Source: Vampirovibrionaceae bacterium NZW_1234 (GTDB taxonomy: Bacteria; Cyanobacteriota; Vampirovibrionia; Vampirovibrionales; JAGQHJ01). From it: a DNA stretch of 64,000 nt. The notes below the pieces were generated by a model, which worked only from the letters and a program-made list of their open reading frames with translations, searched no databases and was not told the DNA's origin. The stretch is taken from NCBI GenBank assembly GCA_041697335.1, contig JBGUGD010000002.1, positions 1 to 64,000 of the forward strand. The letters are read 5' to 3'. The translations under genes and the position numbers were made by a program. Positions 292 through 61,420 of this stretch are shown here, one piece after another (positions within the stretch are counted from its first letter, which is position 1; the number at the start of each line of letters is the position of its first letter).

Positions 292-648
292 ATGATTACC
301 ATTACACCGGTTCGGTTTCTATCTCAGGCGGGGAATTTGACGGTATCGCCCAAGAAGCAAGTTGTTCAGATGCTTCAAAAAAATCAGGTGCCTCATATTA
401 AAGCGATTCAAGGTTTCTCAGCCCATACCATTGTTGTTTGGGTAGAGCCGGATCAGTACGACACTGTTATTCAGAAGATGAATTCATTAGGGCATGCGTT
501 TGATCCGCCTGGTCCACTGGAGACTTTGAATGAGTTCAAATTAAAAGGCACGATGACTCTTGTTGCGATTACACCAGAAAAGAGTCCAGCCCCTTATTTT
601 GATTATGGCATTCCCGATGAGAAGCAAGCTGAGCTTTACCAACCATAG
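292..648 (+). CDS. hypothetical protein (short leader MITITPVRFLS)
   Basis: ORF 145..648; GGGAG RBS precedes ATG at 292; upstream part looks non-coding. Confidence 0.6.
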   Translation: MITITPVRFLSQAGNLTVSPKKQVVQMLQKNQVPHIKAIQGFSAHTIVVWVEPDQYDTVIQKMNSLGHAFDPPGPLETLNEFKLKGTMTLVAITPEKSPAPYFDYGIPDEKQAELYQP

Positions 649-778
649 CCTTGTCAATCATCCTGCTTCTTAATGCGCTCAGGCAATGTTTTTTCGAGGG
701 TGTCTAGTCTTTTGTCCTTCTCACCGCTTCTTTGGTCTATGACACCTCCGAGGGATCTCAGGAGGAACATAATTTGTT

Positions 779-1240
779 ATGGTTGTAATCTCGTGTTGGG
801 ACGAGAGAGTAAGAGAAGTATTACGCTGTCGAGGAGGACGAATGCTGTACCCGTCTACACATGTATGTTCTGCGGATAAAACGAATTGTCCTTCAACATT
901 GGGTCACATCGAATCGGTTTTAATCAAAGAAGTTCCAATATCCTTTATGACCCGGGTGTTTACGTTGGAAGATATGCCGGGGTATGAGCGACAACGGCAT
1001 ATGGCAGGTTATTTATCGATTGCTCATTATTTTATTCAGCTTTTGGAGGCTAAGATGATTTCTCCTCAAAGCTGTTTGCTACTCCCATCGCTTCATAGCC
1101 TAACCCGATTTTTTACGGCGCCGACGTTGGATGTACAGAAAGCCTTTCAACATCTCCGGAATCTTGGATTGGACTATATGATGCCAGGCTATTATGGCCA
1201 TATCTCACTCTGGGTTAAGTCTTGGCCATTAACGAGCTGA
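779..1240 (+). CDS. GntR-like winged-helix domain protein (paralog of 19490 and 19998 genes)
   Basis: AGGAGG RBS; C-terminal IAHYF...LLPSLHSLTRFF...DVQKAFQHLRNLGLDY resembles the GntR HTH LPSxRxLAxxFxxSxxTVxxAxxxL pattern. Confidence 0.65.
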   Translation: MVVISCWDERVREVLRCRGGRMLYPSTHVCSADKTNCPSTLGHIESVLIKEVPISFMTRVFTLEDMPGYERQRHMAGYLSIAHYFIQLLEAKMISPQSCLLLPSLHSLTRFFTAPTLDVQKAFQHLRNLGLDYMMPGYYGHISLWVKSWPLTS

Positions 1241-1550
1241 TAATATAAAACTTTCCAGAGAGTAACGTTCGCGTTCTGTTTCATGTGCAAGCCATGAGGT
1301 CCAATGATGAGGATCAAATGTGGCTTCGACAGGAATGACCCCAGGTGTGCCTTTTGGTGTATCCGGGGTCTTATTATTTGTATCGGACGAGAAAAGATTG
1401 GCAGAATCATTGCTAGGTGTTTTGAACGATGTTCTCATCGTCGCCCTTGATGTCATGCGTGTGACAATTATGTTGGGTTTTATTTAGAACGCGTCAATGA
1501 AGACCGTGCTGGTTAACAAAGCGTGTTTTAGCTTTGCTTAAAACTGAAAT

Positions 1551-6076: not shown

Positions 6077-6949
6077 GTGCCTGTCTTGAGTAGGACCCGA
6101 GATCCATGGTATTTGAGATCAGCTCACCCGTCTGATCTCAATTTGCGCTTTGGTGTTTCATCATCACATTCAGAGCCTGACCATCAGGGGATGGTGCCGG
6201 TTTATCAAGAGCCGGATATTTACGATGCCTCTATCCCAGCGGGTCGGCGTTATGATCAGGATTTTTACTGTGAAGAGGTTCGGCCCATTAAGGATCCTAT
6301 TTTGGAAGTCACGGCGGGGACCGGGCGTATTACAATTCCCATGGCTCAGCAGGGCAACGATGTCACCGGCTTGGATCTGTCGGCGGCCATGTTGGCAAAG
6401 GCTGCCGAGAAAGCTGGAAAGGCCGGTGTTAACGTCCACTGGGTGCAGGCCGATGCGTCTTGTTTTGATTTAAATCGTCGGTTTGGGCGAATTCTGGTTC
6501 CTGCCAGTGGTCTTTGTCTTCTGCCGGATGCCGATCATGTAAGACGATTTTTGCAGTGTGCCCGACGTCATATTTTGCCGAACGGAAAGCTGGTGATGGA
6601 TTTAGTGCCGCCCACTTCGCCGATCGCACATTTGCCCAAGCATCTGACTCACGTGTCCCACACGTATTCATTGCCTCAAGGAGGAGGCGCTGTGGAGGTC
6701 ATTCAGCAGGATTTTGATCATCGCTCTGATGGCAGCTGGTTTACCTATACGTCTGCACATCGGCATCGAGCCAGTGGGGCTATTTTGAGGAAAGATAAAT
6801 TTACCTTTCGTCTGTATGAGCCAAACACCCTAAAATCAATGTTGGATGAGGCCGGATTTGTGGTGGAAGGTGAATATGGCGATTTTTCGAAAGCACCATT
6901 CCTGCCTGATTCCTGGCACCATATTCTCATATGTGGCACCAAAGGCTAA
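6077..6949 (+). CDS. class I SAM-dependent methyltransferase with RFG leader
   Basis: ILEVTAGTGRI, VTGLDLSAAML, WVQADA motifs; LRFG at aa 23-26. Confidence 0.85.
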   Translation: MPVLSRTRDPWYLRSAHPSDLNLRFGVSSSHSEPDHQGMVPVYQEPDIYDASIPAGRRYDQDFYCEEVRPIKDPILEVTAGTGRITIPMAQQGNDVTGLDLSAAMLAKAAEKAGKAGVNVHWVQADASCFDLNRRFGRILVPASGLCLLPDADHVRRFLQCARRHILPNGKLVMDLVPPTSPIAHLPKHLTHVSHTYSLPQGGGAVEVIQQDFDHRSDGSWFTYTSAHRHRASGAILRKDKFTFRLYEPNTLKSMLDEAGFVVEGEYGDFSKAPFLPDSWHHILICGTKG

Positions 6950-8347: not shown

Positions 8348-9469
8348 TTAAGGAGCGGGCTTCATACATTCACAGACACAGTTGAAGAGACCGGGAGGAA
8401 CCAATGCTGCTCGATGAGCGGTAGGGTTTGCCAAAATGGCGGCTACCCGGTCTTTTTCTTCGGTCGGGACGGGCATCTTATCCAGATAGGTTAAAAATTG
8501 GGAGCGAGTATCTGGGTGATGATGCGCATGACGTTTTAACTCAAAATTGGTGCGGAAGAACGTGTCTTCGGTCCGGCTATGGCACTGAATACAGTGGATG
8601 GGCCGAAGCTCGTCGGGAAGTATCTTGCCTCTTGGATTCGCTGGCGCAACATCTCCTTTGGTCGTGTAATAACTAACGGGGAAGACCGAGACAATATTGC
8701 CGTCCTTTACCTTGGCCTGAAAGGAAGCTCCGATAAAGCCGCGCTCAACATTCGGGCCAAGAGGCTCGGTTTCAACCAGGAGCCGGAAAGCATCATTCAC
8801 ATTACCGTCTTCTGCGTTGACAATTTCAAAACGTTTTCGCTGGGGGTTGTAATCCATAAAGGTGATCAGTGCGACCCGACGAATGTCAGGACTATTGGGA
8901 TTAGCGCTGACGTTAACCTTGTAACGGTAAACAATCGGAAGGCCGCGGCCACCATCCATTGTGAATTCTTCCCAGTTGGGGTTGGAATGACCGGATCCTA
9001 ACACGACTGCAACGTTTTTATTTCTCGGATTTAGTACGGCTTGGAGGGTTGGAATGAGTTCCTCTTGGAGTTTCTGGTTGAAAGCGGTCTGGGTTTTGGC
9101 CAGCTCGGCTTCATTTTTTTGTTCTGCTAAGTCGTTAATCCGGTTGGTCCAGGTCACAAATTCATCGTAGCTCAAGCGTTTTCCAGGGCAGCAGGTTATG
9201 GGTTCGTCCAGAGTGTTAAGGGAGGCTGCCTTGGGACGAGCTTGCTGCGGTGCCTGAAAGACCATCGGCAGAGTCCATGGAAGTGTTACAGTTCCTGCAG
9301 CCACTGCTGCCCAGAGACCTGCTTTAAGTTTATTACCCGAAAACCGTAGCGTCTCTGGTGTCACTGTTTGGGTTTGGCGGGTCTGTCGTATCACAGGCGT
9401 TTGAGGAGGATGCGGAAATGCTGAGCGTCGTGTACGGTCCATCAGCCTGCCCGGGCAGGAAAGTCGCAT
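8348..9469 (-). CDS. membrane-anchored protein with one CxxCH heme-c motif and RFSG leader
   Basis: GGGAG RBS before ATG 9469; LRFSG then hydrophobic segment; CIQCH near C-terminus. Confidence 0.7.
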   Translation of the reverse strand: MRLSCPGRLMDRTRRSAFPHPPQTPVIRQTRQTQTVTPETLRFSGNKLKAGLWAAVAAGTVTLPWTLPMVFQAPQQARPKAASLNTLDEPITCCPGKRLSYDEFVTWTNRINDLAEQKNEAELAKTQTAFNQKLQEELIPTLQAVLNPRNKNVAVVLGSGHSNPNWEEFTMDGGRGLPIVYRYKVNVSANPNSPDIRRVALITFMDYNPQRKRFEIVNAEDGNVNDAFRLLVETEPLGPNVERGFIGASFQAKVKDGNIVSVFPVSYYTTKGDVAPANPRGKILPDELRPIHCIQCHSRTEDTFFRTNFELKRHAHHHPDTRSQFLTYLDKMPVPTEEKDRVAAILANPTAHRAALVPPGLFNCVCECMKPAP

Positions 9470-9672
9470 GATATCTCCCAAGAGTATTCCTCACATTAGA
9501 TTGTGTTTAGCGTATGCAAAAAGTCCTGGTACAACAAGTGCTTGTTGATTCGTATTGCAATGAGACGTGTTTTGGAGGGTTCTGTTATTGCTTGCTGAGG
9601 TGTAAATGATGCTCTCGCCAGGTTTTTACTTTTCTTTTATGATGTGCCGGTATATGAGCTGAAAGATGTGAA

Positions 9673-13415: not shown

Positions 13416-13550
13416 CGTTCTGTAACGATCCGCTCTCGGCTCAGGCAATTTCGTCGATTGAGGACGTTCATTGGTGAGTCACACACTGTGTTTTGTGTAC
13501 ACTGTATCACGTGCTAATCGTATGGTAGATGGGATGAAGGGACCAAGCAT

Positions 13551-15176
13551 ATGTTAACTGTTTCTTCAATGCCGCGTGTTTCACCACCGGCACTTCATAG
13601 TCAGTATCACAGCCCCCAACGCCAGGCTCAAACGCCTCGCTTTGGCACAGAGAATACCCAAAATTCAAGCGGCTCCCGTTTGAGAACAGGGATTAAAGCT
13701 CTCTTGGCCTTGCTGGTTGCTGGGGGCGGTGGTTCTTATGTCTATACCACAAATCAAGCCACGCAAGACCGTTTGGATAAGCAACAAGCGGCCATTGTTA
13801 AGACGACAGATCAACTGTCACAAACAGAAGGGCGATTGGCAGAGCTAACGGATGCCCATCAGAAGAAAATGTTAGAACTAGAAGATGCCCGTACTCAGCT
13901 AACCAACCTACAGTCGGGGGCGGTTACACGTGCTCAGGAACTTGAAGCTGCTCGTCAACGACTCGCTCAGCTGACAGCGGAGGTGGCCGAGAAAGAAGCT
14001 GCGCTTAAACGTGCCCAGGCTGCTTATGCTTCCCGCACTGATGCTGCCATAAAAGATTTACAGGAAACCTCGAATATCGATAACGTCCGCCAGCGCCTGG
14101 TGCCATTGGCCAAGCAAGGGGCCCTTCACGTCGAATCCAATGGTGCACCCATCAGTAATACAGGCACAGTCACCATTCTCAAAGTGCGTGACAAATTATT
14201 TTTAGTCTCAAATCACCATGTTTCCAGTCCCCTTAGTCGGGCCGTGATGCCAGAGCCCTTCAAGATGACAGGGGCAGATGGGTTGACCTTTACAACCAAG
14301 CTGAAATACTCGGATCCTGAATTGGATCTCGCTTTTTTTGAAGTGCCTAAGGCGAAGGAAGCTGAATTGATGAAGCGGGCCCTGCCATTGGCGTCAACGG
14401 ATGGTGGTGCCAATTGGTTAGTGGATGGGTCCACTGTTTTTGCCGTGGGCAATCCGGCAGGTATGAAAAATATTCTGACCAGCGGTGTGGCTCAGCTTTA
14501 TACGCCAAAAGAGGGGGAACCTGAGCGAACCGCTTATCCTGTTATGATTCAGACCGATGCGGCCTTGAGCCCAGGAAACTCCGGTGGCCCGTTATTGAAT
14601 CTAAAAGGGCAAGTCGTGGGCATTAATCAGAGTGTTACTTCAGATGACAAAGGCAGTATTGTTCCCGGGCTAAACTTTGCTGTTCCGGCAGATGCGGTTT
14701 TAAGCTCTCTGATAGCCAATAAAGAACTGAAAGCTGAAAACCCGGCCCAGGAACGACTCGTTGTTCAGCATGCCCAGATCTACAAGCAAGCCGCTCGTCG
14801 GGCCAACCTCAATGCATTGGTCAACAAAATGATTGTCGACATGGTCCCTGCTGAGGTGATTACCGGTATCAATTCATCCAAGACTGGTGGTGGTGTGCAG
14901 GCACTTACGAAACACCTTGTCGCGGATCACTTGATGAAAGAGGGCAAGCAAATCCGGGAAAAATATGGTGTGGATGTTACTGATCTGATGGATACGCCCA
15001 TTGATAAGCATTCCAAAGCCATGCTTGACCGGGTAAGGCCTTTGATGGATGACCTACTCTCATCTCATGGTGTACCGCAGCGAAAGGCACCACCGGCTCC
15101 CCCTGCAAAGAAGGAGGAAACTCTGCCTCCACCCCGGGTGGTAGAGGAGTTGCCCCCGCCAAAGTCTGAAGAATAA
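13551..15176 (+). CDS. S1C trypsin-like serine protease with RFG leader, TM segment and coiled coil
   Basis: SNHHV, DLA, IQTDAALSPGNSGGPL triad motifs; TPRFG at aa 28-32; no PDZ domain evident. Confidence 0.9.
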   Translation: MLTVSSMPRVSPPALHSQYHSPQRQAQTPRFGTENTQNSSGSRLRTGIKALLALLVAGGGGSYVYTTNQATQDRLDKQQAAIVKTTDQLSQTEGRLAELTDAHQKKMLELEDARTQLTNLQSGAVTRAQELEAARQRLAQLTAEVAEKEAALKRAQAAYASRTDAAIKDLQETSNIDNVRQRLVPLAKQGALHVESNGAPISNTGTVTILKVRDKLFLVSNHHVSSPLSRAVMPEPFKMTGADGLTFTTKLKYSDPELDLAFFEVPKAKEAELMKRALPLASTDGGANWLVDGSTVFAVGNPAGMKNILTSGVAQLYTPKEGEPERTAYPVMIQTDAALSPGNSGGPLLNLKGQVVGINQSVTSDDKGSIVPGLNFAVPADAVLSSLIANKELKAENPAQERLVVQHAQIYKQAARRANLNALVNKMIVDMVPAEVITGINSSKTGGGVQALTKHLVADHLMKEGKQIREKYGVDVTDLMDTPIDKHSKAMLDRVRPLMDDLLSSHGVPQRKAPPAPPAKKEETLPPPRVVEELPPPKSEE

Positions 15177-15710: not shown

Positions 15711-15911
15711 TTAGCAGTTTGGTACACATTCACCAGGTTTGGGGGCAGGTGCTCTTTTCGGAGCGGGCTCCGTTGGGGCCGTGACAGGTAATCTGTTGGG
15801 TTTGCTGGGAGCCGGGGCGGGCTGTGTTGCTGGTTTATCTTCTTTGGGTTTTGTGGGTGTCTTTGTTGGTGCGGTTGTCGTGCCGAAACGAAACGGAGAT
15901 ATGAACATCAT
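15711..15911 (-). CDS. small Pro/Thr/Lys-rich protein with FRFG leader
   Basis: AAAGGAG RBS; MMFISPFRFGTTTAPTKTP...ECVPNC; starts 14 bp after the stop of the upstream gene. Confidence 0.7.
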   Translation of the reverse strand: MMFISPFRFGTTTAPTKTPTKPKEDKPATQPAPAPSKPNRLPVTAPTEPAPKRAPAPKPGECVPNC

Positions 15912-15925: not shown

Positions 15926-18220
15926 TTATTCACTGATTTTGTCTTTGTTCTCAGGTTCTCGAGGAGGCTCGAGAAAAACGAGTTCTGCCCGACGGTTAAT
16001 GCCGGTTTGTATAAATTTGACCCAGGCACTCTCAGCCGTGAGTGGCTCAGCAGCATCATCACCTTGCAAGGTACCTTCCAAATGGTTGGCAATCTGTCGG
16101 CAGTGAGGCTCGGTTAATTCCAGTGTGGTAAAAGGCTTGTGTGGCGGATAGTCGGGGTGGACAAATGCCAGTAAAGGCGGTGGGCTCGGCTCCCAGTTCT
16201 CCCGATGAAGAAAGGCCCACTCACGCAGTTTCTGCATGCTCGGGGTAAATCCCTGGCTTTGATCTCCGATGAAGACGTTTCGTTTATTAAAGGCCTCGGT
16301 GTCGAACTTCCAGCGACGGTAGTTGTCTTTGACTTGCATTAGTTGGTTTTTTAAAGCTGTCATGGCTCTCACCGGTCCTGATGTTTTGTATAGCTCTGGG
16401 GTAAGGACATGCTGAAAACCCATTGCCTCTATCTCCTGGGGGGCAAACGTCTTGAGCGCAGAGGCGGTCAATGGTTCCTTTTGCCAATAAGCCGGATGGG
16501 CCATGGTGTCTCTGCCAAATTGGGGAGATGAGTTCCGAATGATGAGGGTCCCGTAATCTGGATGACTGGCGAGTAAATAACCTTGGCGAAATTCGATGAC
16601 TGTGTCCATGTCTACACCTGCATCTTTCTTACGAGATTTGCTCAGTAAGAAGCCTTTCCCAAAGCGTCGATGCTCCGGTGAGTCCAAGCGCTCGATGGGA
16701 TCAAATCCGTAGCATTTAAAGATGCTCTCGGAACCGCCCTTGGCGTCATAGCGCCAACTTCGGAAATTATGGGTGAGCAGGCCGATGTCCGACCAGAGTT
16801 GAATCATTGGTGGGGTACTTTCACGGACATCGTGGGCAATAAAGCGTGTAATGCTGGTGAGGCTCGCAATTGTTTGATGCAATAGTTTGCGTCTTAGTTC
16901 AGGAGCTTCTTCTGAGCCAGGATGACGTAATAAAAGCATCAGCTCAGCCTCATTAGGGTGGTGGCCTTTCAATGAATTGGTGATGAAGCGGGTTTCGTTC
17001 TCGGCCTCTACGGCATCCAAGTATTGTAGTATGGGGTTGATGTCGTCAGAGGCCAGCCAATGAGGGATTAGTTTGATTAGGGCCGACTCATCCTGATTGA
17101 AGAGGTTAACAAAGGCGTTGTCCTCGTCGCTTGATGACGCTGACGTCAGGCGTTTTTCGATTTCGGCATAGCGGGCATAGTGACCTTGTGACAAATATTC
17201 AGCCAGCCCTTCGACCCGCTCTTCTGTAGGCGGAGTGGGATGGTTCTTGAGCCAGCCTAATGCTAAGGAGGCTAATCCTTTGAATAGGGATTCTTGTGTA
17301 GAGACAGGTTTTGTAAGTACAGTCTTTATGTCTCTCTCCCATTGATCATCTGGCATCGGCTGTATGGTCAGATGGCGCAAAAGGGCCAACATGGGCATGA
17401 TTTGGAAGGATTTCTCAAGATGCATCATCTCGGGTTCTGTTTTGGCCCGGGCGAGTATTCGACTTACGGTCTTCCAACGCCTGTCTGAAATGGACTCGGC
17501 CAGAGTCGGGTCAAAAAACCATCGATTCAAGAGGCCCAGAAATGATCTGGCGTGTGGGTCTTTGAAGAGCTGGGTGACAGCATCCAATGCTTCACCATAA
17601 TGCGGTTTTGTTTGAAGGGTTTTCACAATAAGTTGTGATGCTTCTACAGGTGTCGGGGGTGCTCCTGGATGGTTGATACCCTCGCTATACCAGTATCCGG
17701 TCTTGTTAACAAGTTGTTGTAACGTCTTTAAGGTGATTTCAAGCTGACGTAGTGAGGAAATCGACTTTATAAGTTTGGGGATTTCTTCTTCGAACAGACT
17801 CTGGCGCATGTGCCAGCCATCTGTGCCTTCTGGTAAAGCCCCGGCCAACTTTGAAAGCTGACTGAAGACGGGTAAGAAGGCCTTGCGGCTTAAAGCTGGT
17901 TGATGGATACAAGCCTCCACCAGAGGATGATCATGGTTTAGCGGCGGATAGTTGCTGAGATGTTTTTTGAGGCTGGATTGGTTCAGCGCGCTTAAAATGG
18001 AACGGGATTTCCACCAGCGTTGCATATGTTGCCATAGGTTACTTGATGGCTTTGTTGTACTTCTGGAAAGACTGTCGCCAAAGCGCGTACCGGAAAACGA
18101 ATCTGATAATGTTTTTGAGACACAAGATAATGGCCCTGGCCATGAGGCGTAAGGTCTTTCTATTATTACTCCCATGGTAGGATTTTTGGGTAAAACCTGC
18201 ACTACAGGCCCCCTTCCCAA
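15926..18220 (-). CDS. large hypothetical protein with TRFG leader (start may be 18175)
   Basis: 764-aa ORF, helical-looking, no recognisable catalytic motif. Confidence 0.8.
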   Translation of the reverse strand: MGRGPVVQVLPKNPTMGVIIERPYASWPGPLSCVSKTLSDSFSGTRFGDSLSRSTTKPSSNLWQHMQRWWKSRSILSALNQSSLKKHLSNYPPLNHDHPLVEACIHQPALSRKAFLPVFSQLSKLAGALPEGTDGWHMRQSLFEEEIPKLIKSISSLRQLEITLKTLQQLVNKTGYWYSEGINHPGAPPTPVEASQLIVKTLQTKPHYGEALDAVTQLFKDPHARSFLGLLNRWFFDPTLAESISDRRWKTVSRILARAKTEPEMMHLEKSFQIMPMLALLRHLTIQPMPDDQWERDIKTVLTKPVSTQESLFKGLASLALGWLKNHPTPPTEERVEGLAEYLSQGHYARYAEIEKRLTSASSSDEDNAFVNLFNQDESALIKLIPHWLASDDINPILQYLDAVEAENETRFITNSLKGHHPNEAELMLLLRHPGSEEAPELRRKLLHQTIASLTSITRFIAHDVRESTPPMIQLWSDIGLLTHNFRSWRYDAKGGSESIFKCYGFDPIERLDSPEHRRFGKGFLLSKSRKKDAGVDMDTVIEFRQGYLLASHPDYGTLIIRNSSPQFGRDTMAHPAYWQKEPLTASALKTFAPQEIEAMGFQHVLTPELYKTSGPVRAMTALKNQLMQVKDNYRRWKFDTEAFNKRNVFIGDQSQGFTPSMQKLREWAFLHRENWEPSPPPLLAFVHPDYPPHKPFTTLELTEPHCRQIANHLEGTLQGDDAAEPLTAESAWVKFIQTGINRRAELVFLEPPREPENKDKISE

Positions 18221-24478: not shown

Positions 24479-26347
24479 ATGGATGTCAATGTATCTCCTG
24501 TTTCTGCTCGCCCAGTGACGAGCCATCGGGCTGGTTTATCCGTGGTCTCGCCTTATGCTGTGCACGCATCTTTGTGTCGATTCTCAGGAAACAACGAGGA
24601 TAAGCCTCAGGCTGCAAAGCCTAAGAATGAGTCGACATTAGCTAAAAAGGCTTTTATTTCTGGGGCTGTCATCAGTAATGTTGCTATTGGTGTAGGCGGC
24701 TGGTTTTTTCCTCCTTTGTGGGCAGGTTATCTGGTGACCGGTCCGCTGACCGCGTTGGGGGTCTACGACTGCCTGCAGCGAAAGCATCCGCTTCGCTACA
24801 ACTATCCTTTGTTGGCACGGATGCGTTGGATGTTGGAAAGCATTCGTCCGGAGATTCGTCAGTATTTTATTGAAGATGATACTACCGGCAAGCCTTTCTC
24901 TCGAGATCAGCGTGAAACCGTATACAAGCGAGCCAAATTAGATACGGATACGGTTGCTTTTGGGACAAAGTTAGATGTAAACGAAGTTGGCGTTGAATAT
25001 GTGACGCATTCAATTGCCGCTAAGAAAGCCATTAAGGAGGATATTCGGGTCACCATCGGTGGGCCTGATTGCAAACAGCCTTACAGTGCTTCTATTTTCA
25101 ATATCTCAGCCATGAGTTACGGTGCTTTAAGCAAAAATGCCATTCTGGCTTTAAACCGGGGAGCCAAGATGGGCAATTTTTATCACAACACAGGTGAGGG
25201 CAGTATCAGTCCTTACCATTTTGGACAGGATGTAAATATCGAAGAGCCAGGCTTTGATTATGTTCAATTCCTCGAGAAAATGCGTCAAGCTCCGCCTGAT
25301 GTGGCCAAGACCATGGGCGATCTCTGCTGGCAAATAGGGACCGGTTATTTTGGATGCCGTAACCCGGATGGCAGCTTTAATTTTGAACGGTATCAGGCCT
25401 TAGCGACACTGCCGAACGTTAAAATGATCGAATTAAAATTGTCTCAAGGGGCAAAGCCGGGCCATGGTGGGATTCTTCCTGCGGCCAAAGTAACGAATGG
25501 CATTGCTAAAATTCGCTTGGCTGTCATTGGTCAGGATATTATTTCCCCGGAAAGCCATTCTGCTTTTTCGACACCGATAGAGATGCTGCAGTTTATCAAA
25601 AAACTGCGTGAGCTGTCTGGAGGCAAGCCCGTCGGGTTCAAGCTGTGTGTTGGTAATAAGCATGAGTTTATTGCCGTATGCAAGGCCATGGTGGATACGG
25701 GGATTACACCCGACTTTATTACCGTGGATGGATCTGAGGGGGGCACCGGGGCTGCTCCTCGTGAGTTTGCAGACTCGATGGGCATGCCGTTAAATGATGC
25801 CCTGGTTTTTGTTCAGAACGTTTTGGTGGGCATGAATTTGCGCAATCGTATTAAGATCATCGCTGGCGGTAAGATCATCAATGGCTATGATATTCTTTCC
25901 AAAGTTGCCCGTGGTGCGGATGTTCTGAATTCAGCCCGGGGTATGATGTTTGCCTTGGGATGTATTCAGGCATTGGAGTGTAACAAGAATACCTGCCCCA
26001 CAGGGGTTGCTACTCAAAATCAGGCCTTGGTCAATGGGTTGGATCCGGCGGACAAGAGCGTTCGAGTCTATAATTTCCAGCATCAGACCGTCAAAAACGT
26101 GAAGGAACTTTTAGCTGCGATGGGGTTGAAGCATACATCCCAAATCAAACCATGGCATGTACAGAAACGCGTGACGATATCTGAAATTCGCAATTTATCA
26201 CAAATTTATGAGTTTATTCAGCCTGGTGCGTTGTTAGAGGGTAAAGTTCCGACTTCTCTTGTGAATGAGTGGAATCACGCAGATCCTAAAACGTTTGACT
26301 CCTCTCCGGAAGGATCTCTCTGGAAGCCTGCCTTAACTGCTGCCTAG
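24479..26347 (+). CDS. FMN-binding glutamate synthase family protein with RFSG leader
   Basis: SAMSYGALS, NTGEG, KLSQGAKPGHGG, DGSEGGTGAAP, CIQALECNKNTCPTGV. Confidence 0.92.
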   Translation: MDVNVSPVSARPVTSHRAGLSVVSPYAVHASLCRFSGNNEDKPQAAKPKNESTLAKKAFISGAVISNVAIGVGGWFFPPLWAGYLVTGPLTALGVYDCLQRKHPLRYNYPLLARMRWMLESIRPEIRQYFIEDDTTGKPFSRDQRETVYKRAKLDTDTVAFGTKLDVNEVGVEYVTHSIAAKKAIKEDIRVTIGGPDCKQPYSASIFNISAMSYGALSKNAILALNRGAKMGNFYHNTGEGSISPYHFGQDVNIEEPGFDYVQFLEKMRQAPPDVAKTMGDLCWQIGTGYFGCRNPDGSFNFERYQALATLPNVKMIELKLSQGAKPGHGGILPAAKVTNGIAKIRLAVIGQDIISPESHSAFSTPIEMLQFIKKLRELSGGKPVGFKLCVGNKHEFIAVCKAMVDTGITPDFITVDGSEGGTGAAPREFADSMGMPLNDALVFVQNVLVGMNLRNRIKIIAGGKIINGYDILSKVARGADVLNSARGMMFALGCIQALECNKNTCPTGVATQNQALVNGLDPADKSVRVYNFQHQTVKNVKELLAAMGLKHTSQIKPWHVQKRVTISEIRNLSQIYEFIQPGALLEGKVPTSLVNEWNHADPKTFDSSPEGSLWKPALTAA

Positions 26348-31633: not shown

Positions 31634-32779
31634 TCATTGTATAAGTGACCCCGCCCCACAAGCGTCAACGACAATCGAAACGGCTGGTGCCCGACCGTGT
31701 GTTCGTTGTTGAGCCTGGTTGAAGTTGCGGATCATTGTTTTAAAGTCGTTTTCAAATAAGGCTTCCGAACCAATACTTAAGACGCCCATTAAGCCGCCTT
31801 CGCGTTTCTGTAGTGCTGTGGATACGTGTTTGTCCGGCAAGGCAGCTCCTTCGCCGACATAATAAATCAGCACCTCGTCCGGGTTGTCCTGACAGTGACG
31901 TTTCAATGCATCTGCCAGATCCTTGGAGCGAGGTAGGTTTAGAACGATTAGGTTGGCTGGTTGCCCGGGGCGATTATCTTCATGTAAGCCATAGGATTTC
32001 GCCATCGTCTGTCGAACCAGATTAATATCATGAACATTGGCATCGTAGGAGTTTTCGCCAGAATCATTTAGTCCAGAGCCAATGATTAAAAACGCTTTTC
32101 GGTTTTTAGTTTCCGATTTTACAAAACTGTTTTTGCCTTCCGGAGAATGCACCGGTTGTGTTCTCCCGAATACACTGTCGGTATTAACCTGGTTAAAGGC
32201 TTCGCTCAGTGAGGAGTGCTCTTCAAGGGCGGCCATAAGCCTGGGTGTAAATATTCCACGCTGTTGAAGCACCGAAATTCGGGATTGTGCCCCTTGTTGT
32301 ACGGCGGCATAAACCCGGACATTCTCCGGCCAGGGGTTTGGGTGTTCTGAACGGCTCATCAATTCTCCAGGCTTGGTCGGAAACGCTCGGGACAAATCTC
32401 CACCAAGCACCTTAATACCGCCAACAAGAGCCAGGCTGGAACTCAGAATGATGGTCATACCCAGGATGCGGCGTTTCAAAAAAGATCGCAGCCGTGTTCC
32501 AAAGGGTTTGTTCTTTTCTTCCAGGTACTCTTGATAGGTTTGTTGCGGAATAATGGGCATGCCCATGGCAATCCATCGCTTGAAGCTTTGCCACCGTCCT
32601 GTTGGTGTTTCTGTTGGGGGGGAAGGCAGGTTTTTTCCAAAGCGGATGGTACCCTCTCGAGGGATAAGGGCGTCTATATTCATTGACAGATCAGTTTGAT
32701 AAGGCGCAATAGGCTTTTGCCCCTGCCTTTTCTGTGGGGATTCCACGGATAAGGCACGGGTTGTGTCAACGATAAGCAT
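31634..32779 (-). CDS. caspase-like (C14/hemoglobinase fold) protein with RFG leader and TM segment; catalytic His position is Glu
   Basis: KAFLIIG, EVLIYYVGEG (usually YxSGHG), IVVDACGAG. Confidence 0.75.
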   Translation of the reverse strand: MLIVDTTRALSVESPQKRQGQKPIAPYQTDLSMNIDALIPREGTIRFGKNLPSPPTETPTGRWQSFKRWIAMGMPIIPQQTYQEYLEEKNKPFGTRLRSFLKRRILGMTIILSSSLALVGGIKVLGGDLSRAFPTKPGELMSRSEHPNPWPENVRVYAAVQQGAQSRISVLQQRGIFTPRLMAALEEHSSLSEAFNQVNTDSVFGRTQPVHSPEGKNSFVKSETKNRKAFLIIGSGLNDSGENSYDANVHDINLVRQTMAKSYGLHEDNRPGQPANLIVLNLPRSKDLADALKRHCQDNPDEVLIYYVGEGAALPDKHVSTALQKREGGLMGVLSIGSEALFENDFKTMIRNFNQAQQRTHGRAPAVSIVVDACGAGSLIQ

Positions 32780-35228: not shown

Positions 35229-35447
35229 ACCGAAATGTCAGCTATATACGGGTATTTAGGCTTGTCCACTGCCCGTTTTTCAATTGCCTGTGATATGGAG
35301 ATCGCAGGCAATCGTATTTTTTAGCGTTCAAGATGTACGTTTTCAAAAAGACTGTCAAAAATATCGTTTTACCGGGTTTAGTGTGAGCGAGATGCACTGT
35401 ACCTAACTGTTCACCTTGTGGTGAACCAGACGATTGGAAGAACTATT

Positions 35448-37070
35448 ATGCATTGCCCCAAAATACGTTTTGGATACACACTGACTTATGAAGGCTTAAC
35501 CCGCAAGGAATTGGCGGCCAGTGTTCAACAATGCGGTTTCGATCGATTTGAGTCGGCCAAAGCCGCACTGTTGGTTCAGGATGAGGATTACGAGAATATG
35601 CGCCAGTTCTGGTCCTGGTATCCTCGGGCCGATTTGGTTCGGGACACCATGATACGAACCATTGAGCAAAGTGCGCAATCTGGAGAATTACGGTTAAACG
35701 CAGACACCATGATGCGTCAGTTTCGATGTTCCGAACAGGAATTAAGCCTGGTGCTTTCAACCTATCGGCAACTGGCTAAAGGCCAAGGATATGTTATGGC
35801 GCCATTTTTATTCGATGAATCGACTAACAGTTGGACGACGCGTTTTCGTAAAGCCAATTCCGGGAACCTGCCGGCGTTTAATTTGAAAGTATACCAGGCC
35901 TTAAAGCGTTATTTGTTTGAAGAACGTAAACGTTCCGGTGTGTCCGTCAATTTGCCGCTATCCTTCGGCGAGATTTTAAACCGGCCGGGCCAAAAAATAA
36001 CCATTGAGGCGGATGGGGATATGGCTGAGTTGACGGCCGGAAGCCGTGGAGAATTGTGGGTTCGTGGCAAAGGGCAGAATAATACGGTTGCTATTCTCGA
36101 TAATACAATACAGGGTGAGCAGATTACGCCCTTGTTTGAATCCATGCGTCTGCTTTCCCCCAACGATAAGATCATTGTGGGAAACCGTATTTTGGTTGTA
36201 AAGCCTGATATGAAGCTGGACTTGTACAGCAATAATGCCACGATGCTGAAGCAATTATTTCCCAAAGGGATTGCATATGAATCATTCCAGCAGAATAACA
36301 TTGGAGACTGTTATTTATTGTCCTCCCTGGATGCCCTGGCCAAAAATCCCATGGGGGAAGCCGTGCTGGCCCGTATGATTCAGGCTGGGAAGAACGGGGG
36401 CTGGGAAGTTGAATTTCCCGATGGGGAAATGATTGAAGTGACACCGCAGGATTTGCGTCGCTACTGGCTCTCGGATCAACAGGAGTATCGGATGCCGGTG
36501 CGTGGCTGTTTGGGATGGCAAATCTTGGAGCGGGCGTTTGGCAAACGCTTAAAAAGCCAGGATGCCGATGGGGGGCAGGTGAAGAACCACCATACGCTGT
36601 TGGCGCTTGAGAACGCGTATAAACATACCAATGGTCGATATGACTTTGGACACCGGGTCCTGCACGAGATGACCGGTTGGCAAAAGTACTTTGTCCGAAC
36701 GCCAAAAGAGGATCAGCTCCATTTGGACCATCAACCCTATGCCAAGGACGACTTCTTTAGAATCCTGGATCAAATTGGCTCTCGTCCTGAATCTTTTGTT
36801 GCTACGGCCAATACGCCTTCATATAGGCATGCCCGTTTTCACATTCCGAATCCAAATGGACGCACCCGATACTTTATGGATGCGCAAGGCCAGTTTATGA
36901 CCAGTCACGTGTATTCCATCCGGCGCATCGATCCGGCGACCAAGACGGTCACTCTTGTGAATCCGTGGGACACATCAAAACCGATTGGTCTGTCCTATGA
37001 GGATTTTTACGATATGTTTGCCTCGATTTCCTATGTCGAAGTACCCACCCACGAGATGGTTCTTAAATAA
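35448..37070 (+). CDS. calpain-like (C2) cysteine protease with IRFG leader
   Basis: QNNIGDCYLLSSL, SHVYSI, LVNPWD catalytic triad motifs. Confidence 0.88.
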   Translation: MHCPKIRFGYTLTYEGLTRKELAASVQQCGFDRFESAKAALLVQDEDYENMRQFWSWYPRADLVRDTMIRTIEQSAQSGELRLNADTMMRQFRCSEQELSLVLSTYRQLAKGQGYVMAPFLFDESTNSWTTRFRKANSGNLPAFNLKVYQALKRYLFEERKRSGVSVNLPLSFGEILNRPGQKITIEADGDMAELTAGSRGELWVRGKGQNNTVAILDNTIQGEQITPLFESMRLLSPNDKIIVGNRILVVKPDMKLDLYSNNATMLKQLFPKGIAYESFQQNNIGDCYLLSSLDALAKNPMGEAVLARMIQAGKNGGWEVEFPDGEMIEVTPQDLRRYWLSDQQEYRMPVRGCLGWQILERAFGKRLKSQDADGGQVKNHHTLLALENAYKHTNGRYDFGHRVLHEMTGWQKYFVRTPKEDQLHLDHQPYAKDDFFRILDQIGSRPESFVATANTPSYRHARFHIPNPNGRTRYFMDAQGQFMTSHVYSIRRIDPATKTVTLVNPWDTSKPIGLSYEDFYDMFASISYVEVPTHEMVLK

Positions 37071-51953: not shown

Positions 51954-52202
51954 AAGATGGGTATGCCTGGGGGGGAGGCTCTTTTGGGAGGAGGTGCTTT
52001 TTACTTTCCCCGGGCTTGATATCATTTGGGGATGCACCGGATAAGTCTCGTTACAGTTTTGTAACGCTTTGAGCCAAAAGGATTCACTCAATCCAGTGTT
52101 CACGCTAAGATGCGCATAAATTAAAGTCACTATTTCATGTGAATGAAATAGGGCTGAATCTGTAACCCGCTGCTTGTTAGAAAGAGACGATACGAGAGTC
52201 TG

Positions 52203-53687: not shown

Positions 53688-53784
53688 TTGAACGCTTAAG
53701 CCCGGATAGTGATCCCCGTTTCTGTCGAGGCAAGTTTGTGCTACAGTTAAGCAGATGTAATGCTCACAACCAAGGAGCCCCCTG

Positions 53785-54003
53785 ATGTTTATGCCTGTTT
53801 CTTTTCCATTGTTTTTAGGTTCGCCGATGGAAGTTGGTTTGGTTTTTCTTGTGGTGCTGATTCTGTTCGGCCCGGGTAAGTTGCCGGAAGTCTTCCGCTC
53901 CTTGGGTGAAGGGGTTCGCAAGTTTAAAGAAGCCTCCAACGGTAATCTGGAAACCACCCCGACAGTACCGACCCTGCCTCGTTCAGACGAGCCGAAGGCG
54001 TAG
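53785..54003 (+). CDS. tatA: twin-arginine translocase TatA/TatE
   Basis: LILFGPGKLPE..RSLGEG.RKFK. Confidence 0.93.
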   Translation: MFMPVSFPLFLGSPMEVGLVFLVVLILFGPGKLPEVFRSLGEGVRKFKEASNGNLETTPTVPTLPRSDEPKA

Positions 54004-54008
54004 GGGTT

Positions 54009-55594: not shown

Positions 55595-56107
55595 ATGACC
55601 ACGACAGCGGGCGTCACCATTTTAGAACTGACCGGCCATATTATTGATTCCCTGACCCTGGCCAAGGTCATCGACAAAATCCAGGCGGCTGGGTTTGATT
55701 ATCAAATCAACGACATTCAGATCGGCCAATATAAAACCGATCCCTCTACAGTCCACTTTTCCCTGTGGACCCAGGACAATCCCGAGTTTGAAGCCTTGCT
55801 CGACGAATTAAGAGCCTATGGGGCTGAATCGGTTTCGGAAACCAATGTGTCACTCGCCCCATGTCCTGCTGATGGTGTGCTTCCCAAAGGCGCCTATACC
55901 CGCAAAAACCCGCCGATTCAGATTCAATGCATGAACGAGTGGCTGTCCGTGGAAAGCCAAGCCGGTGAGTTGGCCATTGTGGTTGATACCGCAAGTAAAA
56001 GTGCGTTGCTGAAAAACGTGCAAGACATTAAAGCCGGTGACTCTGTTGTGGTGGGTCATGCCGGGGTTCGGGTCATGCCGATGCTGAAGGCAGGCGCCCA
56101 TGTCTAA
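55595..56107 (+). CDS. LOR/SDH-type (TIGR00300 N-terminal / ArgZ middle) domain protein
   Basis: ELTGHIIDS..L.KV.D.I, PADGVLP, GD.VVVGHAGVRV. Confidence 0.75.
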   Translation: MTTTAGVTILELTGHIIDSLTLAKVIDKIQAAGFDYQINDIQIGQYKTDPSTVHFSLWTQDNPEFEALLDELRAYGAESVSETNVSLAPCPADGVLPKGAYTRKNPPIQIQCMNEWLSVESQAGELAIVVDTASKSALLKNVQDIKAGDSVVVGHAGVRVMPMLKAGAHV

Positions 56108-56954
56108 TCTGTCTCAGCAGTATTTTGTTCCGACCAGTCCGCTGAAGGATACCTCCCGGCCGCATATTCTGATGAGTCCGCCGGACTACTTTACCGTCGA
56201 ATACGCGATTAATCCGTGGATGACCCAGGGGGCTGCCGATACGGATTTGGCCAAGACCCAGTGGGAGGCCCTGTATAAGGCCATTACCGAAAAGGCCGGG
56301 GCTTCGGTTCATATTCTGGATCCGGTCCAGGGGCTTCCTGATTTGGTCTTTACCGCCAATGCCGCATTTGTCTACAAGGACACCGCCATTATTGCCCATT
56401 ACAAGTTCGCCGAGCGCCAGCCGGAAGAGCCCTTCTGCGAAGCCTGGTTCAAGAAAAACGGCTACCGGACCATCACCATGCCCGAAGACATGTTTTTTGA
56501 AGGGGCCGGCGATGCCCTCATCTGGCAGGATCGGGTGTTTGCCGGGTACAAGACCCGGACGGATATTTTATCGCATCACATGATTACCCGGGAAACCGGC
56601 CTGCCGGTCTTGTCCATGGAACTCATCGATCCGCGGTTCTATCACATTGACGTGTGCATCTGCCCCTTGTACAACGGCTACTTTATTTATTATCCCGATG
56701 CCTTTGACGATTACGGCAAACGCGTGATTGAAGCCAATGTGCCCGCAGACAAGCTGATTCCCGTGACCGGTGAAGAAGCTTACAAGTTTGCCTGCAATGC
56801 GGTGAACATTAACGACACTGTGATCTTTAACCAGGGCTCCGACCGCCTGGCTGGGGAGCTGACCGAGCGCGGCTTCCAGGTGATTCAGGTGGATCTGAGC
56901 GAGTTTTTAAAAGCCGGGGGCTCGTCCAAGTGCCTCACCCTTCGGGTGGCGTAA
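56100..56954 (+). CDS. amidinotransferase-fold enzyme (arginine dihydrolase/dimethylarginase-like)
   Basis: LMSPPDYF.V.Y.INPWM, PDLVFTAN, FEGAGD, FYHID, KAGGSSKCLTL. Confidence 0.9.
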   Translation: MSNLSQQYFVPTSPLKDTSRPHILMSPPDYFTVEYAINPWMTQGAADTDLAKTQWEALYKAITEKAGASVHILDPVQGLPDLVFTANAAFVYKDTAIIAHYKFAERQPEEPFCEAWFKKNGYRTITMPEDMFFEGAGDALIWQDRVFAGYKTRTDILSHHMITRETGLPVLSMELIDPRFYHIDVCICPLYNGYFIYYPDAFDDYGKRVIEANVPADKLIPVTGEEAYKFACNAVNINDTVIFNQGSDRLAGELTERGFQVIQVDLSEFLKAGGSSKCLTLRVA

Positions 56955-59408: not shown

Positions 59409-59431
59409 TCTGAGCGCAACCTGAGACAGGT

Positions 59432-59473: not shown

Positions 59474-59637
59474 AGCGGAGTTAGTTGATTTATTGAGAAT
59501 GATACACGGCCTGTGCATGTGAAGAAATGAAACAGTTTACCTCTCGGTAGGTTGGCTTAAATTGCGGCTGGGAATAACGAGTGTGGAGACATGTAAAACC
59601 TGCTGCGACATATCAATCTGTTCAACAAAGACTGTGA

Positions 59638-60786
59638 GTGGACTCGATGATGGGGGCGATGATGATGAGAGAATTGGCGCGAGCATTTTTGTCCTGTTTC
59701 ACTAGAGTGACGCAAATCCGTCCCCCGGGGCAACGGGGGCAGGCGGTGATTCAGACCGTCGGGCTTTTGTTTGTAACCCTGTTTGTCGGTGCCTTGGCCA
59801 TTGACACGGGGTTTTATTTTGCACGACATCAAGGCATGCGAAATGCATCGGAGGCCGCCGCCCTGGCCGCGACTTCGGAATTGTTCCGGACACAGGCCTC
59901 AAGTATTAGTTTGCGGCAATCAGCGGCTCGAAATGCGGCACGGACCTTGTCTCAGCAGAATATGAACAACCAGCTCAATGACGCCGACATCGAGTTTGGG
60001 TATGTGAATCCACAAGGCTCTTATAACGCCAGCACGTTTCTGACGCCGACCTCTAACAAGGCCTTTGCTGCCACGGGTGGATACAATGCGGTTCGTGTTA
60101 CGGTGCGGGCCGCCCAAGGGCAGGCCAATAGCGCTGTTCCAACCTTGTTTGCCAAACTCTTTGGAATTAACAGCGTCAATGCCGCTGCCCGGACCGTGGC
60201 GATTTATGGTGGTGCGGCTTCCAGTGTGGGGGGCTTGCGCCCGGTTTATATGTGTCAGGCCGCCTGGGATTATGCCCAGAATAATTTTGGGGATGCAACG
60301 ATTCCCGTGGTTCGTTTTTATGGCGAGACCCTGATGGTGAACGGAAACACCGTGAATGCGGCAAACAGTTGCGGTAATCTGGGGCCCGGCAACTGGGGCT
60401 TGGCCGACCTGGACAATGGCAATGGGGCGGTCGGGGCAAGCACCGTCCGTAATTGGTTTGCCAATGGCTATGACGGTCAGGTCATTGTGGGACAATGGTA
60501 TGATGCTCAGCCCGGAAATTCCATCAATGCTTACAGTTCGGAATTAAGCGCTCTGCAAAATGCCGGAACCGTCATTACCATTCCACTTTACAGCCAGACC
60601 CGGGGCAATGGATCCAATGCCGAATACCGGGTGTCGAGCATTGCGGGATTTGTCATTACCAATTTTCAATCGACCGGCAGCAATCGCTTTATCGAAGGCT
60701 ATTTTCGCCGGGCGCTTTGCCATAATTGTACTCTGGGCAATCCACCCATCAGTGGCGCGTTGACCCGGATTCGGATGGTTAATTAG
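59638..60786 (+). CDS. TadG-like pilus assembly protein (Tad domain)
   Basis: RG|QAVI..VGLL....GALAIDTG......MRNASEAAALAA; VPTLFAKLFG; GNWG. Confidence 0.85.
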   Translation: MDSMMGAMMMRELARAFLSCFTRVTQIRPPGQRGQAVIQTVGLLFVTLFVGALAIDTGFYFARHQGMRNASEAAALAATSELFRTQASSISLRQSAARNAARTLSQQNMNNQLNDADIEFGYVNPQGSYNASTFLTPTSNKAFAATGGYNAVRVTVRAAQGQANSAVPTLFAKLFGINSVNAAARTVAIYGGAASSVGGLRPVYMCQAAWDYAQNNFGDATIPVVRFYGETLMVNGNTVNAANSCGNLGPGNWGLADLDNGNGAVGASTVRNWFANGYDGQVIVGQWYDAQPGNSINAYSSELSALQNAGTVITIPLYSQTRGNGSNAEYRVSSIAGFVITNFQSTGSNRFIEGYFRRALCHNCTLGNPPISGALTRIRMVN

Positions 60787-60793
60787 TTTATCT

Positions 60794-61420
60794 CTACCGG
60801 GTGTCGATGTCCCAGGCCACCTGCTCCAGGAAGCCTGAGCCCAGAAATACGCAGAATTTTTCACCCTTGGGCGTCAAGTCGAGGGTGGGGGTTTTTGACC
60901 AATGCCAGAATCCGGGTCGGCGGATCGTGATGAAACCCAGCGCCTCCAGATCCTGGAGCGCCCGTTGAAACCCGGTATCAGTCATGGTTTTCAGCGGGAC
61001 CGGATCCGCACCCAGTTCCGGACGTAGGTAGGGTGAGGTGTCTGAAAGCCGGTGGCGCAGATTGGGGGTGACGGGAATGGGGCTTTTGTTGAATTTCTGG
61101 ATTCGGGCCACATCCAGAACCGCCATGACCACCGGGAGCGAGACGCCCTCATGCTGGATCCGGGCCAGCTCTTTCAGGCGCTTAAAGGCGCTCATCAGGC
61201 TTTCGCCGGTCGGGAAGAAATGGCGCTGCTGATGGCGGGGCGCCGTTGGATCGTTGTGACGGGGTGAGAACGGATCGGCATGGTCCACGAGCTTGGGAAG
61301 TGTGCCGAATCGCATGGCGTGGGTTTTTACCGATTTCGACAGGTCCGATCCCAAAGCGGGGGACCCGGATATCGGCCTCAGGGGTGGGCGGGTTTGTAGG
61401 GCAAAGGGGGACAGTCGCAT
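60794..61420 (-). CDS. hypothetical protein with MRFG leader and C-terminal wHTH-like segment
   Basis: AAGGAG RBS; FQRALQDLEALGFI...LTPKG. Confidence 0.7.
   Translation of the reverse strand: MRLSPFALQTRPPLRPISGSPALGSDLSKSVKTHAMRFGTLPKLVDHADPFSPRHNDPTAPRHQQRHFFPTGESLMSAFKRLKELARIQHEGVSLPVVMAVLDVARIQKFNKSPIPVTPNLRHRLSDTSPYLRPELGADPVPLKTMTDTGFQRALQDLEALGFITIRRPGFWHWSKTPTLDLTPKGEKFCVFLGSGFLEQVAWDIDTR

Follow-up and report, generated by a model that had tools for sequence, protein, structure and literature searches.

An N-terminal Arg-Phe-Gly leader on unrelated proteins of a Vampirovibrionaceae bacterium: a candidate lineage-specific sorting tag

RFG leaders in the window

The stretch of DNA analysed here (the window, 64,000 nucleotides) is the first 64 kb of a contig (JBGUGD010000002.1; C34 in our numbering) of Vampirovibrionaceae bacterium NZW_1234, whose genome (G000) amounts to 3.70 Mb in 41 contigs and is 94.75% complete. 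A preliminary description of the window had drawn attention to nine open reading frames (ORFs), otherwise unlinked, that start with a short extension ending in Arg-Phe-Gly (RFG) or Arg-Phe-Ser-Gly (RFSG). Translation places all nine of these leaders (LRFG, LRFSG, PRFG, FRFG, TRFG, CRFSG, two IRFG and MRFG) at the residues claimed; the ORFs concerned are collected in Table 1. The variant leaders reported alongside them (VRFA, PLFG, VFFG, VRFLS, PRMG, PRVG and PRFQS) are likewise present, and the housekeeping genes of the window that had been set apart as RFG-free are indeed without the motif.

Pfam agreed with the names given to the methyltransferase, the trypsin-like protease, the Glu_synthase-domain protein, the Nudix, DHH and Lon proteins, and also to LigA, LdhA, the PduO-type adenosyltransferase, USP, YaiI and the response regulator. 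The name calpain stood marginally, through a Peptidase_C2 match with E 2.5e-5 and 23.9 bits against a cut-off of 23.8. For the name caspase-like, Pfam gave no match to the 381-aa ORF, and the assignment comes from a language-model lead (score 0.90). As for the FHA-like ORF, its PRFQS leader is there, but the ORF itself is the last 316 residues of a 1338-aa minus-strand frame. The region that contains this frame (50571-54587) is GC-rich and shows long open frames on both strands, namely the 1338-aa one on the minus strand, for which no Pfam family was found, and two of 313 and 494 aa on the plus strand.

In the methyltransferase (ORF 6077-6949), the Pfam domain begins at residue 74-75, past the leader, and in the trypsin-like protease the Trypsin_2 domain comprises residues 212-358. 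No significant Pfam family was found for the 377-aa CxxCH protein, and none for the 764-aa and 208-aa orphans. Elsewhere in the genome, the 764-aa orphan has a leader-bearing paralogue (on contig C13) and the calpain-like protein has two. The Glu_synthase-domain protein has an orthologue of 60% identity in a second genome of the same family (G003), which shows PRLTFAG at the equivalent position.

Table 1. Leaders and box of the window (window positions), followed by the flagellar-type gate sets of the same genome (contig and kb)
Feature	Position	Strand	ORF	Remarks
SAM-methyltransferase leader, ending LRFG	6077..6154	+	6077-6949	RFG codons 6146-6154
377-aa CxxCH protein leader, ending LRFSG	9335..9481	-	8348-9481	LRFSG at 9335-9346, then hydrophobic stretch
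Promoter-like box GCAATTT-N14-GTTCA	13445..13470	+		81-106 nt 5' of protease start codon
Trypsin-like protease leader, ending PRFG	13551..13646	+	13551-15176	PRFG at 13638-13646
66-aa Pro/Thr/Lys-rich micro-ORF, start MMFISPFRFG	15882..15911	-	15711-15911	FRFG is residues 7-10; codon coordinates derived by hand from ORF start
764-aa orphan leader, ending TRFG	18077..18220	-	15926-18220	TRFG at 18077-18085
Glu_synthase-domain protein leader, ending CRFSG	24479..24589	+	24479-26347	CRFSG at 24578-24589, then transmembrane segments
381-aa ORF leader, ending IRFG	32636..32779	-	31634-32779	IRFG at 32636-32644; no Pfam family
Calpain-like protein leader, ending IRFG	35418..35474	+	35418-37070	IRFG at 35466-35474
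208-aa orphan leader, ending MRFG	61304..61420	-	60794-61420	MRFG at 61304-61312
Gate set A: fliPQR-flhB-flhA with fliI, fliF, flgC	C2, 99-104 kb and 180-186 kb			
Gate set B: fliOPQR	C8, 66-68.5 kb			
Gate set B: flhB2	C29, 178.7-179.8 kb			beside diverged FliA/WhiG-like sigma factor
Gate set B: flgBC-fliF-fliH-flhA2-fliI	C32, 8-21 kb			

The leader is real, translated and an add-on

For the genome as a whole, we picked the longest ORFs (minimum 90 residues) greedily and without large overlaps; the 3167 obtained in this way span 87% of the DNA. Both the calls and their start codons are crude, and some spurious frames are included. In the window, the interior RFG rate of about 0.2 per 1000 residues leads one to expect ~0.7 RFG in the first 70 residues of its 52 ORFs; we observed seven RFG and two RFSG.

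The same held genome-wide when N-terminal and internal frequencies were compared, a check that the preliminary description had called for. When the tripeptides that occur 15 times or more at N-termini are ranked by over-representation in residues 2-60, RFG comes out on top, with 179 occurrences against 39 expected from protein interiors or 32 from N-terminal composition; PRF and VRF come directly next, and LRF, RFS and IRF lower. The excess is confined to the start of the proteins: the first three 20-residue bins contain 71, 71 and 41 RFG (1.12, 1.12 and 0.65 per 1000 residues), later bins 0.15-0.35 per 1000 residues, and the five other permutations of R, F and G occur at 0.05-0.33 per 1000 residues in every bin. 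When the preceding residue is included, [VLIP]RFG is found 131 times in the first 70 residues (10.0 expected) and 38 times in all remaining sequence, with a Poisson P of ~1e-95, and S[VLIP]RFG 38 times versus 2, a 65-fold rate ratio. The RFG leader is real, not a product of chance, and about one protein in twenty (~5% of the proteome, ~130-190 proteins) is tagged with it.

At the nucleotide level, the pattern (CGN/AGR)-TTY-GGN is enriched solely in frame 0, with 27-44 occurrences per 30-nt bin versus 4-20 in the other two frames, and the Arg, Phe and Gly residues of the motif are encoded by synonymous codons in roughly genome-like proportions. Frame specificity and synonymous codon use together imply that it is the peptide, and no DNA or RNA element, that is under selection; the possibility of a DNA-level or untranslated motif is ruled out by these two tests. 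Upstream of the motif, a Shine-Dalgarno-like sequence with an in-frame start is present in 131 of 172 carriers, and the closest start supported in this way lies a median of 16 residues before the Arg (quartiles 8 and 29). The leader-bearing paralogue of MDH is a telling case: RFG occupies residues 10-12, the Rossmann fold runs from residue 23, and there is no Met, Val or Leu between the two, so that no ATG, GTG or TTG start can lie there.

BLAST clustering distributed 192 carriers over 169 clusters, as befits the claim that the leader sits on unrelated proteins, and paralogy or common descent is thereby ruled out as its cause. The further claim that the leader is an add-on was sustained on two counts. 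Pfam domains start beyond it (e.g., at residue 23 in MDH, 60 in PRPP synthetase, 61 in ECH and 75 in the methyltransferase), and the genome also encodes leaderless paralogues of MDH, PRPP synthetase, GMP kinase (guanylate kinase), FtsH, Lon, ClpB, M16 peptidase and NTP-transferase, with alignments that start past the leader. The leader is a translated, selected add-on.

The motif itself is narrowly defined. Arg is the sole residue enriched ahead of FG and Phe the sole one between R and G, and the residue most enriched after RF is Gly; each of these enrichments is 4-fold, and that of Ser, Ala and Gln after RF is 2-fold. The consensus reads S at -2 (22%, 3.4-fold), V, L, P or I at -1 (65% together), R-F-G, and a small or polar residue (S, A, Q, N) at +1, with Pro raised at +8 to +10. 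It can be written as [S/A/P]-[V/L/I/P]-R-F-G, with weaker forms RF(S/Q)G and RF[S/A], typically 5-30 residues from the N-terminus; many leaders are just 3-12 residues long.

In the 20 residues preceding the motif, D (2.8%) and E (2.2%) are scarce and P (10.6%) and S (10.3%) abundant, compared with background values of 5.2, 5.9, 5.5 and 6.2%, respectively. Past the motif the composition is normal, the mean hydropathy is negative and a hydrophobic segment occurs at no fixed distance. These data agree with the Ser/Pro-rich, acid-poor, non-hydrophobic extension originally described. Type III export signals are Ser/Pro-rich, acid-poor N-termini without a hydrophobic core, and in composition the leader has the properties of an injectisome effector signal.

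Most carriers are soluble: one or more transmembrane (TM) segments are predicted in 14% of them versus 30% of other ORFs, and none has four or more, versus 6%. A hydrophobic N-terminus, defined by a Kyte-Doolittle value of 1.6 or more over a 19-residue span that starts ahead of residue 40, is present in 1.3% of 159 carriers but in 17.6% of the 3008 other ORFs, in line with the early statement that these leaders are not Sec, Tat or lipoprotein signals.

Among the 72 carriers scanned, 47 have no Pfam family, versus 46 of 110 non-carriers from the same loci. Those assigned by Pfam include proteins of proteolysis and unfolding (an FtsH-like protease, Lon, a ClpB-like ATPase, an M16 peptidase and the trypsin-like protease), metabolic enzymes (MDH, PRPP synthetase, guanylate kinase, enoyl-CoA hydratase, an NDP-sugar transferase and Nudix), and furthermore an isochorismatase, an acyltransferase, an alpha/beta hydrolase and an Exo_endo_phos nuclease/phosphatase. 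That proteases and metabolic enzymes bear the leader was borne out, those with the leaderless paralogues named above being extra copies. Eukaryote-type or effector-like domains also occur among the carriers (Ank, HEAT, EF-hand, calpain-like and Exo_endo_phos). Two or three of the Pfam-assigned carriers resemble background, e.g., a chorismate synthase with an internal RFG.

Carrier genes tend to adjoin each other: 35 pairs are adjacent, where 1000 shuffles gave 13.1 ± 3.4 and at most 26. No family, for instance of a cognate chaperone, was seen to recur beside them; the largest neighbour families, judged from N-terminal sequences only, resemble a membrane sensor-type protein and ABC ATPases. At their C-termini, the carriers are of unremarkable composition apart from a 1.4-fold excess of Lys.

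A promoter-like box and the occurrence of the tag in relatives

Among 814 heptamers tested, GCAATTT is the most enriched in the 250 nt preceding the ORF starts of carriers, being found in 26 of 172 carriers (~15%) versus 119 of 2995 other ORFs (p 3e-8). The effect is orientation-specific, since the reverse orientation occurs in 5 carriers versus 127 others. When aligned, the box consists of GGCAATTT, ~7 nt, TGA, and then a GTTTATTA-like element 12-16 nt past the heptamer, and it mostly lies 20-135 nt 5' of the longest-ORF start. Many of the box-bearing non-carriers have variant leaders (RFQG, RFSS, RFAA, AFG, KFG). Given this shared box, at least part of the tagged set looks co-regulated. In the window overall the heptamer is not over-represented (16 seen, 17.7 expected).

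G000 is the sole genome of its genus; its family (f1) has four others, and the order comprises 49 genomes in three families (f1, f2 and f3). Six relatives were read for 100-400 kb each with the same ORF caller, one of them (G049) from another family of the class (f4). In these samples we counted [VLIP]RFG in the first 70 residues, the expectation being taken from protein interiors, and the strict box pattern GCAATTT-N12-16-GTTTW (Table 2).

Table 2. N-terminal [VLIP]RFG and strict box matches in G000 and sampled relatives
Genome	Family	[VLIP]RFG seen / expected	P	Strict box matches	DNA searched for box
G000	f1	131 / 10.0			
G004	f1	9 / 1.8	1e-4	10	268 kb
G003	f1	8 / 0.7	7e-7	7	274 kb
G024	f3	7 / 0.6	4e-6	2	400 kb
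G008	f3	2 / 0.9		4	400 kb
G005	f2	0 / 1.0		1	400 kb
G049 (100 kb only)	f4	0 / 0.3			

The tag is abundant in all three f1 genomes sampled and rarer in f3, and none was seen in the f2 and f4 samples; as far as these samples reach, it is restricted to a clade. As judged by eye from the ORFs that follow, seven of the nine evaluable box matches of G004 precede an ORF with N-terminal RFG, RFQG, HFG, HFQG, HFSG, QFG or SFG, and an eighth precedes RFK.

Comparison of orthologues shows the motif being kept while its surroundings change. The Exo_endo_phos orthologues read SIRFGSSG in G000 and KLRFGDNG in G004, with diverged flanks, and in a 305-aa protein PPRFQGS of G000 corresponds to ACRFSGE of G003. 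A 429-aa family, present in 25 of the 49 genomes, shows RFG in G000, G045 and G014 (two families) and RFQG in G030; other f3 members have TFTG, SFKG or TFQG, and one f2 genome has SRFGQ farther upstream. In a 268-aa family, Arg is present in all four f1 copies, and His or Gln in two f3 copies; a search for homologous proteins with the 268-aa carrier returned only itself. Such variants indicate that Phe-Gly forms the centre of the tag, with Arg as its fixed first residue in this family. In the f3 sample of G024, SF[KG] was found 19 times in the first 70 residues versus 8.0 expected.

A different kind of N-terminal repetition was noticed in the f2 sample (G005), where WMG, QWN, VCD and CDS each recur 6-8 times; this points to a repeated paralogous N-terminus, possibly of a mobile-element family.

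What the tag may do

We compared the leader with known N-terminal signals. The leader does not have the hydrophobic h-region of a Sec (signal peptidase I) signal peptide, a hydrophobic N-terminus being found in 1.3% of the 159 carriers. For Tat, the residue before the Arg is V, L, P or I instead of R, and no hydrophobic segment follows at a fixed distance. A lipobox was not found either, there being no hydrophobic N-terminus and only 0.5-0.7% Cys around the motif. RGF, as in type IV prepilin leaders, occurs at N-termini at 0.14-0.25 per 1000 residues, as in interiors, and no hydrophobic stretch follows. Double-glycine (C39 peptidase) leaders do not fit, Phe being invariant before Gly and RFGG rare (12 in the first 60 residues). 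A search of 27 N-terminal 70-residue segments against NCBIfam gave no match for 22, chance matches for three (E 0.06-0.22) and, for two, matches via the start of the enzyme domain.

Dedicated machines were searched for as well. SecA_DEAD is present exactly once in 47 of the 49 genomes of the order, including G000, and absent in the other two, leaving no second SecA. A type IV secretion system, whose co-occurrence with the leader had been suggested for checking, finds no support: VirB4 (PF03135) gave no match in any of the five f1 genomes including G000, the coupling protein PF12696 (TraG/VirD4-type) gave none in G000, and VirB4 matches within the order are limited to one genus (g20) of f3. Neither TssC of the type VI secretion system nor a phage-type contractile sheath was found in G000, and no injectisome was found there, flagellar-type gates only, with needle and translocator genes not searched for. 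G000 has two secretins, one of which lies inside a Tad pilus cluster.

This Tad/Flp pilus cluster, on contig C2 at 140-150 kb, is a full one (TadE, RcpC, secretin, TadZ-like, TadA, TadB). In the window, a gene for a Tad_C-domain protein is located at 59638-60786 (+).

Flagellar-type export gates are present in duplicate, with two homologues each of FlhA, FlhB, FliP/Q/R, FliI and FliF (sets A and B, Table 1). The two sets share 37% identity in FlhA, 34% in FlhB, 43% in FliP and 51% in FliI; the autocleavage motif NPTH of FlhB1 is replaced by NPIH in FlhB2. Both are accompanied by genes for flagellar rod proteins, FliF and FliH. Flagellins are encoded too, so at least one gate set builds a real flagellum.

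We favour the view that RFG is a lineage-specific sorting tag, most likely for a Sec-independent route of export or translocation, to which we assign a probability of roughly 45%. A cytoplasmic machine would probably read the tag during or after translation, and a partly co-regulated set of ~130-190 mostly soluble proteins would be sorted away from the ordinary cytoplasmic pool. The cargo would be an effector-like arsenal of proteases, AAA+ unfoldases, nucleotide and redox enzymes and proteins with eukaryote-type repeats. Since many of the carriers need ATP or cofactors, their destination must be cytoplasm-like, and they may act where ATP is available, e.g., inside prey or a host. For the route itself, either of the two type III gates of flagellar type is conceivable. 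A fuller picture would have an undescribed Sec-independent translocation route in the non-photosynthetic cyanobacteria of this order, perhaps through a repurposed second flagellar-type gate, with hydrophobic-Arg-Phe-Gly and its own promoter box as address tag and ~5% of the proteome as a deliverable arsenal, including ATP-driven proteases and unfoldases (the paralogues of FtsH, Lon and ClpB) along with duplicated enzymes of metabolism, all working in prey or host cells; this we put forward tentatively, as a possible but rather uncertain extension. Should other orders have related Phe-centred tags, the system would span the class.

A number of observations weigh against the favoured view. The gate-recognition motif F-x-x-x-hydrophobic is not seen, the commonest residue at F+4 being Leu with 12% (1.2-fold), followed by T, S and P. 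The flagellar rod proteins are without RFG. The preliminary description had proposed to test co-occurrence with the flagellar type III system, and the outcome was divided: gates are present in G000, but 30 of 31 genomes of the order possess the two FlhA types, f2 included, whose sample lacks the tag, so that the gates do not track it. (No FlhA was found in the seven genomes of a further family of the class, f5.) As to expression, the heptamer was not seen before the type III genes looked at (the flhB2 and flhA2 operons), sigma-28-type promoters are not enriched 5' of carriers (strict pattern, 1/172 versus 6/2995), and in G003 one or two of seven box matches precede a leader-like ORF (one RFA, one RPFIG; five misses). 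Finally, some carriers are ordinary-looking inner-membrane proteins; in the FtsH paralogue a TM segment follows 14 residues after RFG, which fits a tag on the cytoplasmic face equally well. Modelling of a 60-residue leader in complex with the C-domain of FlhB2, run with no controls, scored 0.00 and weighs neither way.

The narrower idea that the tag marks substrates of a flagellar-type gate specifically, with one FlhA/FlhB/FliPQR set exporting the tagged proteins, draws on the presence of two full gate sets, on the position of flhB2 beside a diverged sigma factor and on four carriers that adjoin the fliOPQR genes of set B on contig C8. Early flagellar subunits would provide an analogy, being unchaperoned and having discrete N-terminal signals (PMC8983047). 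Yet the presence of both sets in a family whose sample is without the tag, the rod proteins without RFG, the missing F-x-x-x-hydrophobic motif, the sigma-28 result and flagellins that point to a real flagellum make this form of the hypothesis unlikely in our view.

Another explanation is that RFG is a conditional degron or processing site, where an endopeptidase (an Arg-specific orthocaspase, or a trypsin-like or calpain-like protease) would cut at or next to R-F-G. A cut after the Arg would expose an N-terminal Phe, an N-degron for ClpS/ClpAP, and a co-regulated, stage-specific set of proteins would be removed or activated together. N-terminal Phe is an established bacterial N-degron. A protease site would be consistent with the narrow choice of residues that flank the motif (-2, S; -1, V/L/I/P; +1, small or polar), and caspase-like, calpain-like and trypsin-like proteins are encoded in the genome. 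Furthermore, the tag occurs on soluble proteins or, where there is a TM segment, on its cytoplasmic side, and the shared promoter box points to stage-specific expression. However, the candidate proteases are carriers themselves, making the argument circular; it is hard to explain why extra leader-bearing copies of housekeeping proteins should be kept merely for degradation; and the content of orphans and eukaryote-type domains suits cargo better than a degradation set. We judge a degron or processing site, too, to be unlikely, though it is a serious rival.

Intracellular localisation is a further alternative: no membrane would be crossed, and the tag would dock proteins to a cytoplasmic structure (pole, attachment organelle, chaperone or condensate). 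This is compatible with the nature of the motif, which is short and linear and lies in an N-terminal tail that is acid-poor and looks disordered, with its position just before the first TM segment of membrane proteins as well as on soluble ones, and with the failure to find a dedicated injection system. No candidate hub was found, though, and no recurrent neighbour family beside the carriers, and ~5% of the proteome in 169 unrelated families is a great deal for one docking site, so we hold this alternative, likewise a serious rival, to be improbable. An artefact (chance, untranslated upstream DNA in frame, or shared N-terminal ancestry) is most improbable: many starts are over-extended by longest-ORF calling, at least one of the 'carriers', an antisense frame over flhB2, is spurious, and an estimated 40-50 of 193 N-terminal RFG are due to chance, but frame specificity, synonymous codons, the Poisson P for [VLIP]RFG, the unrelated clusters, the conservation in orthologues and the MDH paralogue without a downstream start all speak against it.

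The closest parallels to the RFG tag lie in several known systems. In the regulon of Pseudomonas syringae type III effectors with hrp-box promoters, unrelated, often orphan proteins are likewise doubly marked, by a shared promoter element and by a Ser/Pro-rich, acid-poor N-terminus without a hydrophobic core. The regulator is HrpL (PMC3879358). Here, in contrast, R-F-G is nearly invariant, whereas the P. syringae signals have no fixed residue motif; the box has another sequence and is found in ~15% of carriers; and flagellar-type gates are present, with no injectisome found. Early flagellar subunits have an N-terminal hydrophobic signal and a gate-recognition motif that docks at FlhB-C (PMC8983047). 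They share with our carriers a short discrete N-terminal signal with a key phenylalanine, and flagellar-type gates are available here; they differ in that there is no hydrophobic preference at F+4 in the carriers, and more than 130 carriers is far above any set of flagellar substrates.

RxLR of oomycetes and PEXEL of Plasmodium are motifs that follow a Sec signal peptide in eukaryotes, PEXEL being a protease site of the endoplasmic reticulum. The analogy would be that of a short N-terminal motif on a large, diverse repertoire in one lineage; unlike in those cases, the present organism is a bacterium and its leader comes without a signal peptide. The Tat signal (S-R-R-x-F-L-K), which serves a non-Sec route, also brings N-terminal Ser, Arg and Phe close together, but in our motif there is a single Arg and no hydrophobic h-region after it, the hydropathy being negative past the motif.

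Literature searches, with supplements left aside, returned no description of an N-terminal RFG tag. To our knowledge, bacteria seldom have N-terminal tags with a fixed motif that mark unrelated proteins by the hundred, and behind every one found so far a machine for transport or sorting has come to light. The lineage is uncultured and its way of life is known solely from one cultured predator of algae; a tag that can be read from sequence provides a list of ~130-190 candidate cargo proteins in such a lineage. The list is unusual in its extra FtsH, Lon, ClpB, M16 peptidase, MDH, PRPP synthetase and GMP kinase. Should the route turn out to be one of the two flagellar-type gates, the flagellar export apparatus would have been turned to protein delivery a second time, independently.

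Some other genes of the window deserve mention. A 306-aa protein encoded at 45562-46482 (-), which is without an RFG leader, matches over its last 80 residues the C-terminal end of AvrB_AvrC, a plant-pathogen type III avirulence family (E 7.8e-19). A RecT-family recombinase lies at 26813-27592 (-) amid unrelated genes and may be the remnant of a mobile element or prophage. At 55595-56954 (+), a gene for an ArgZ-like / LOR-SDH N-domain protein adjoins one for an enzyme of the DDAH-type amidinotransferase fold, which suggests an arginine-catabolic pair.

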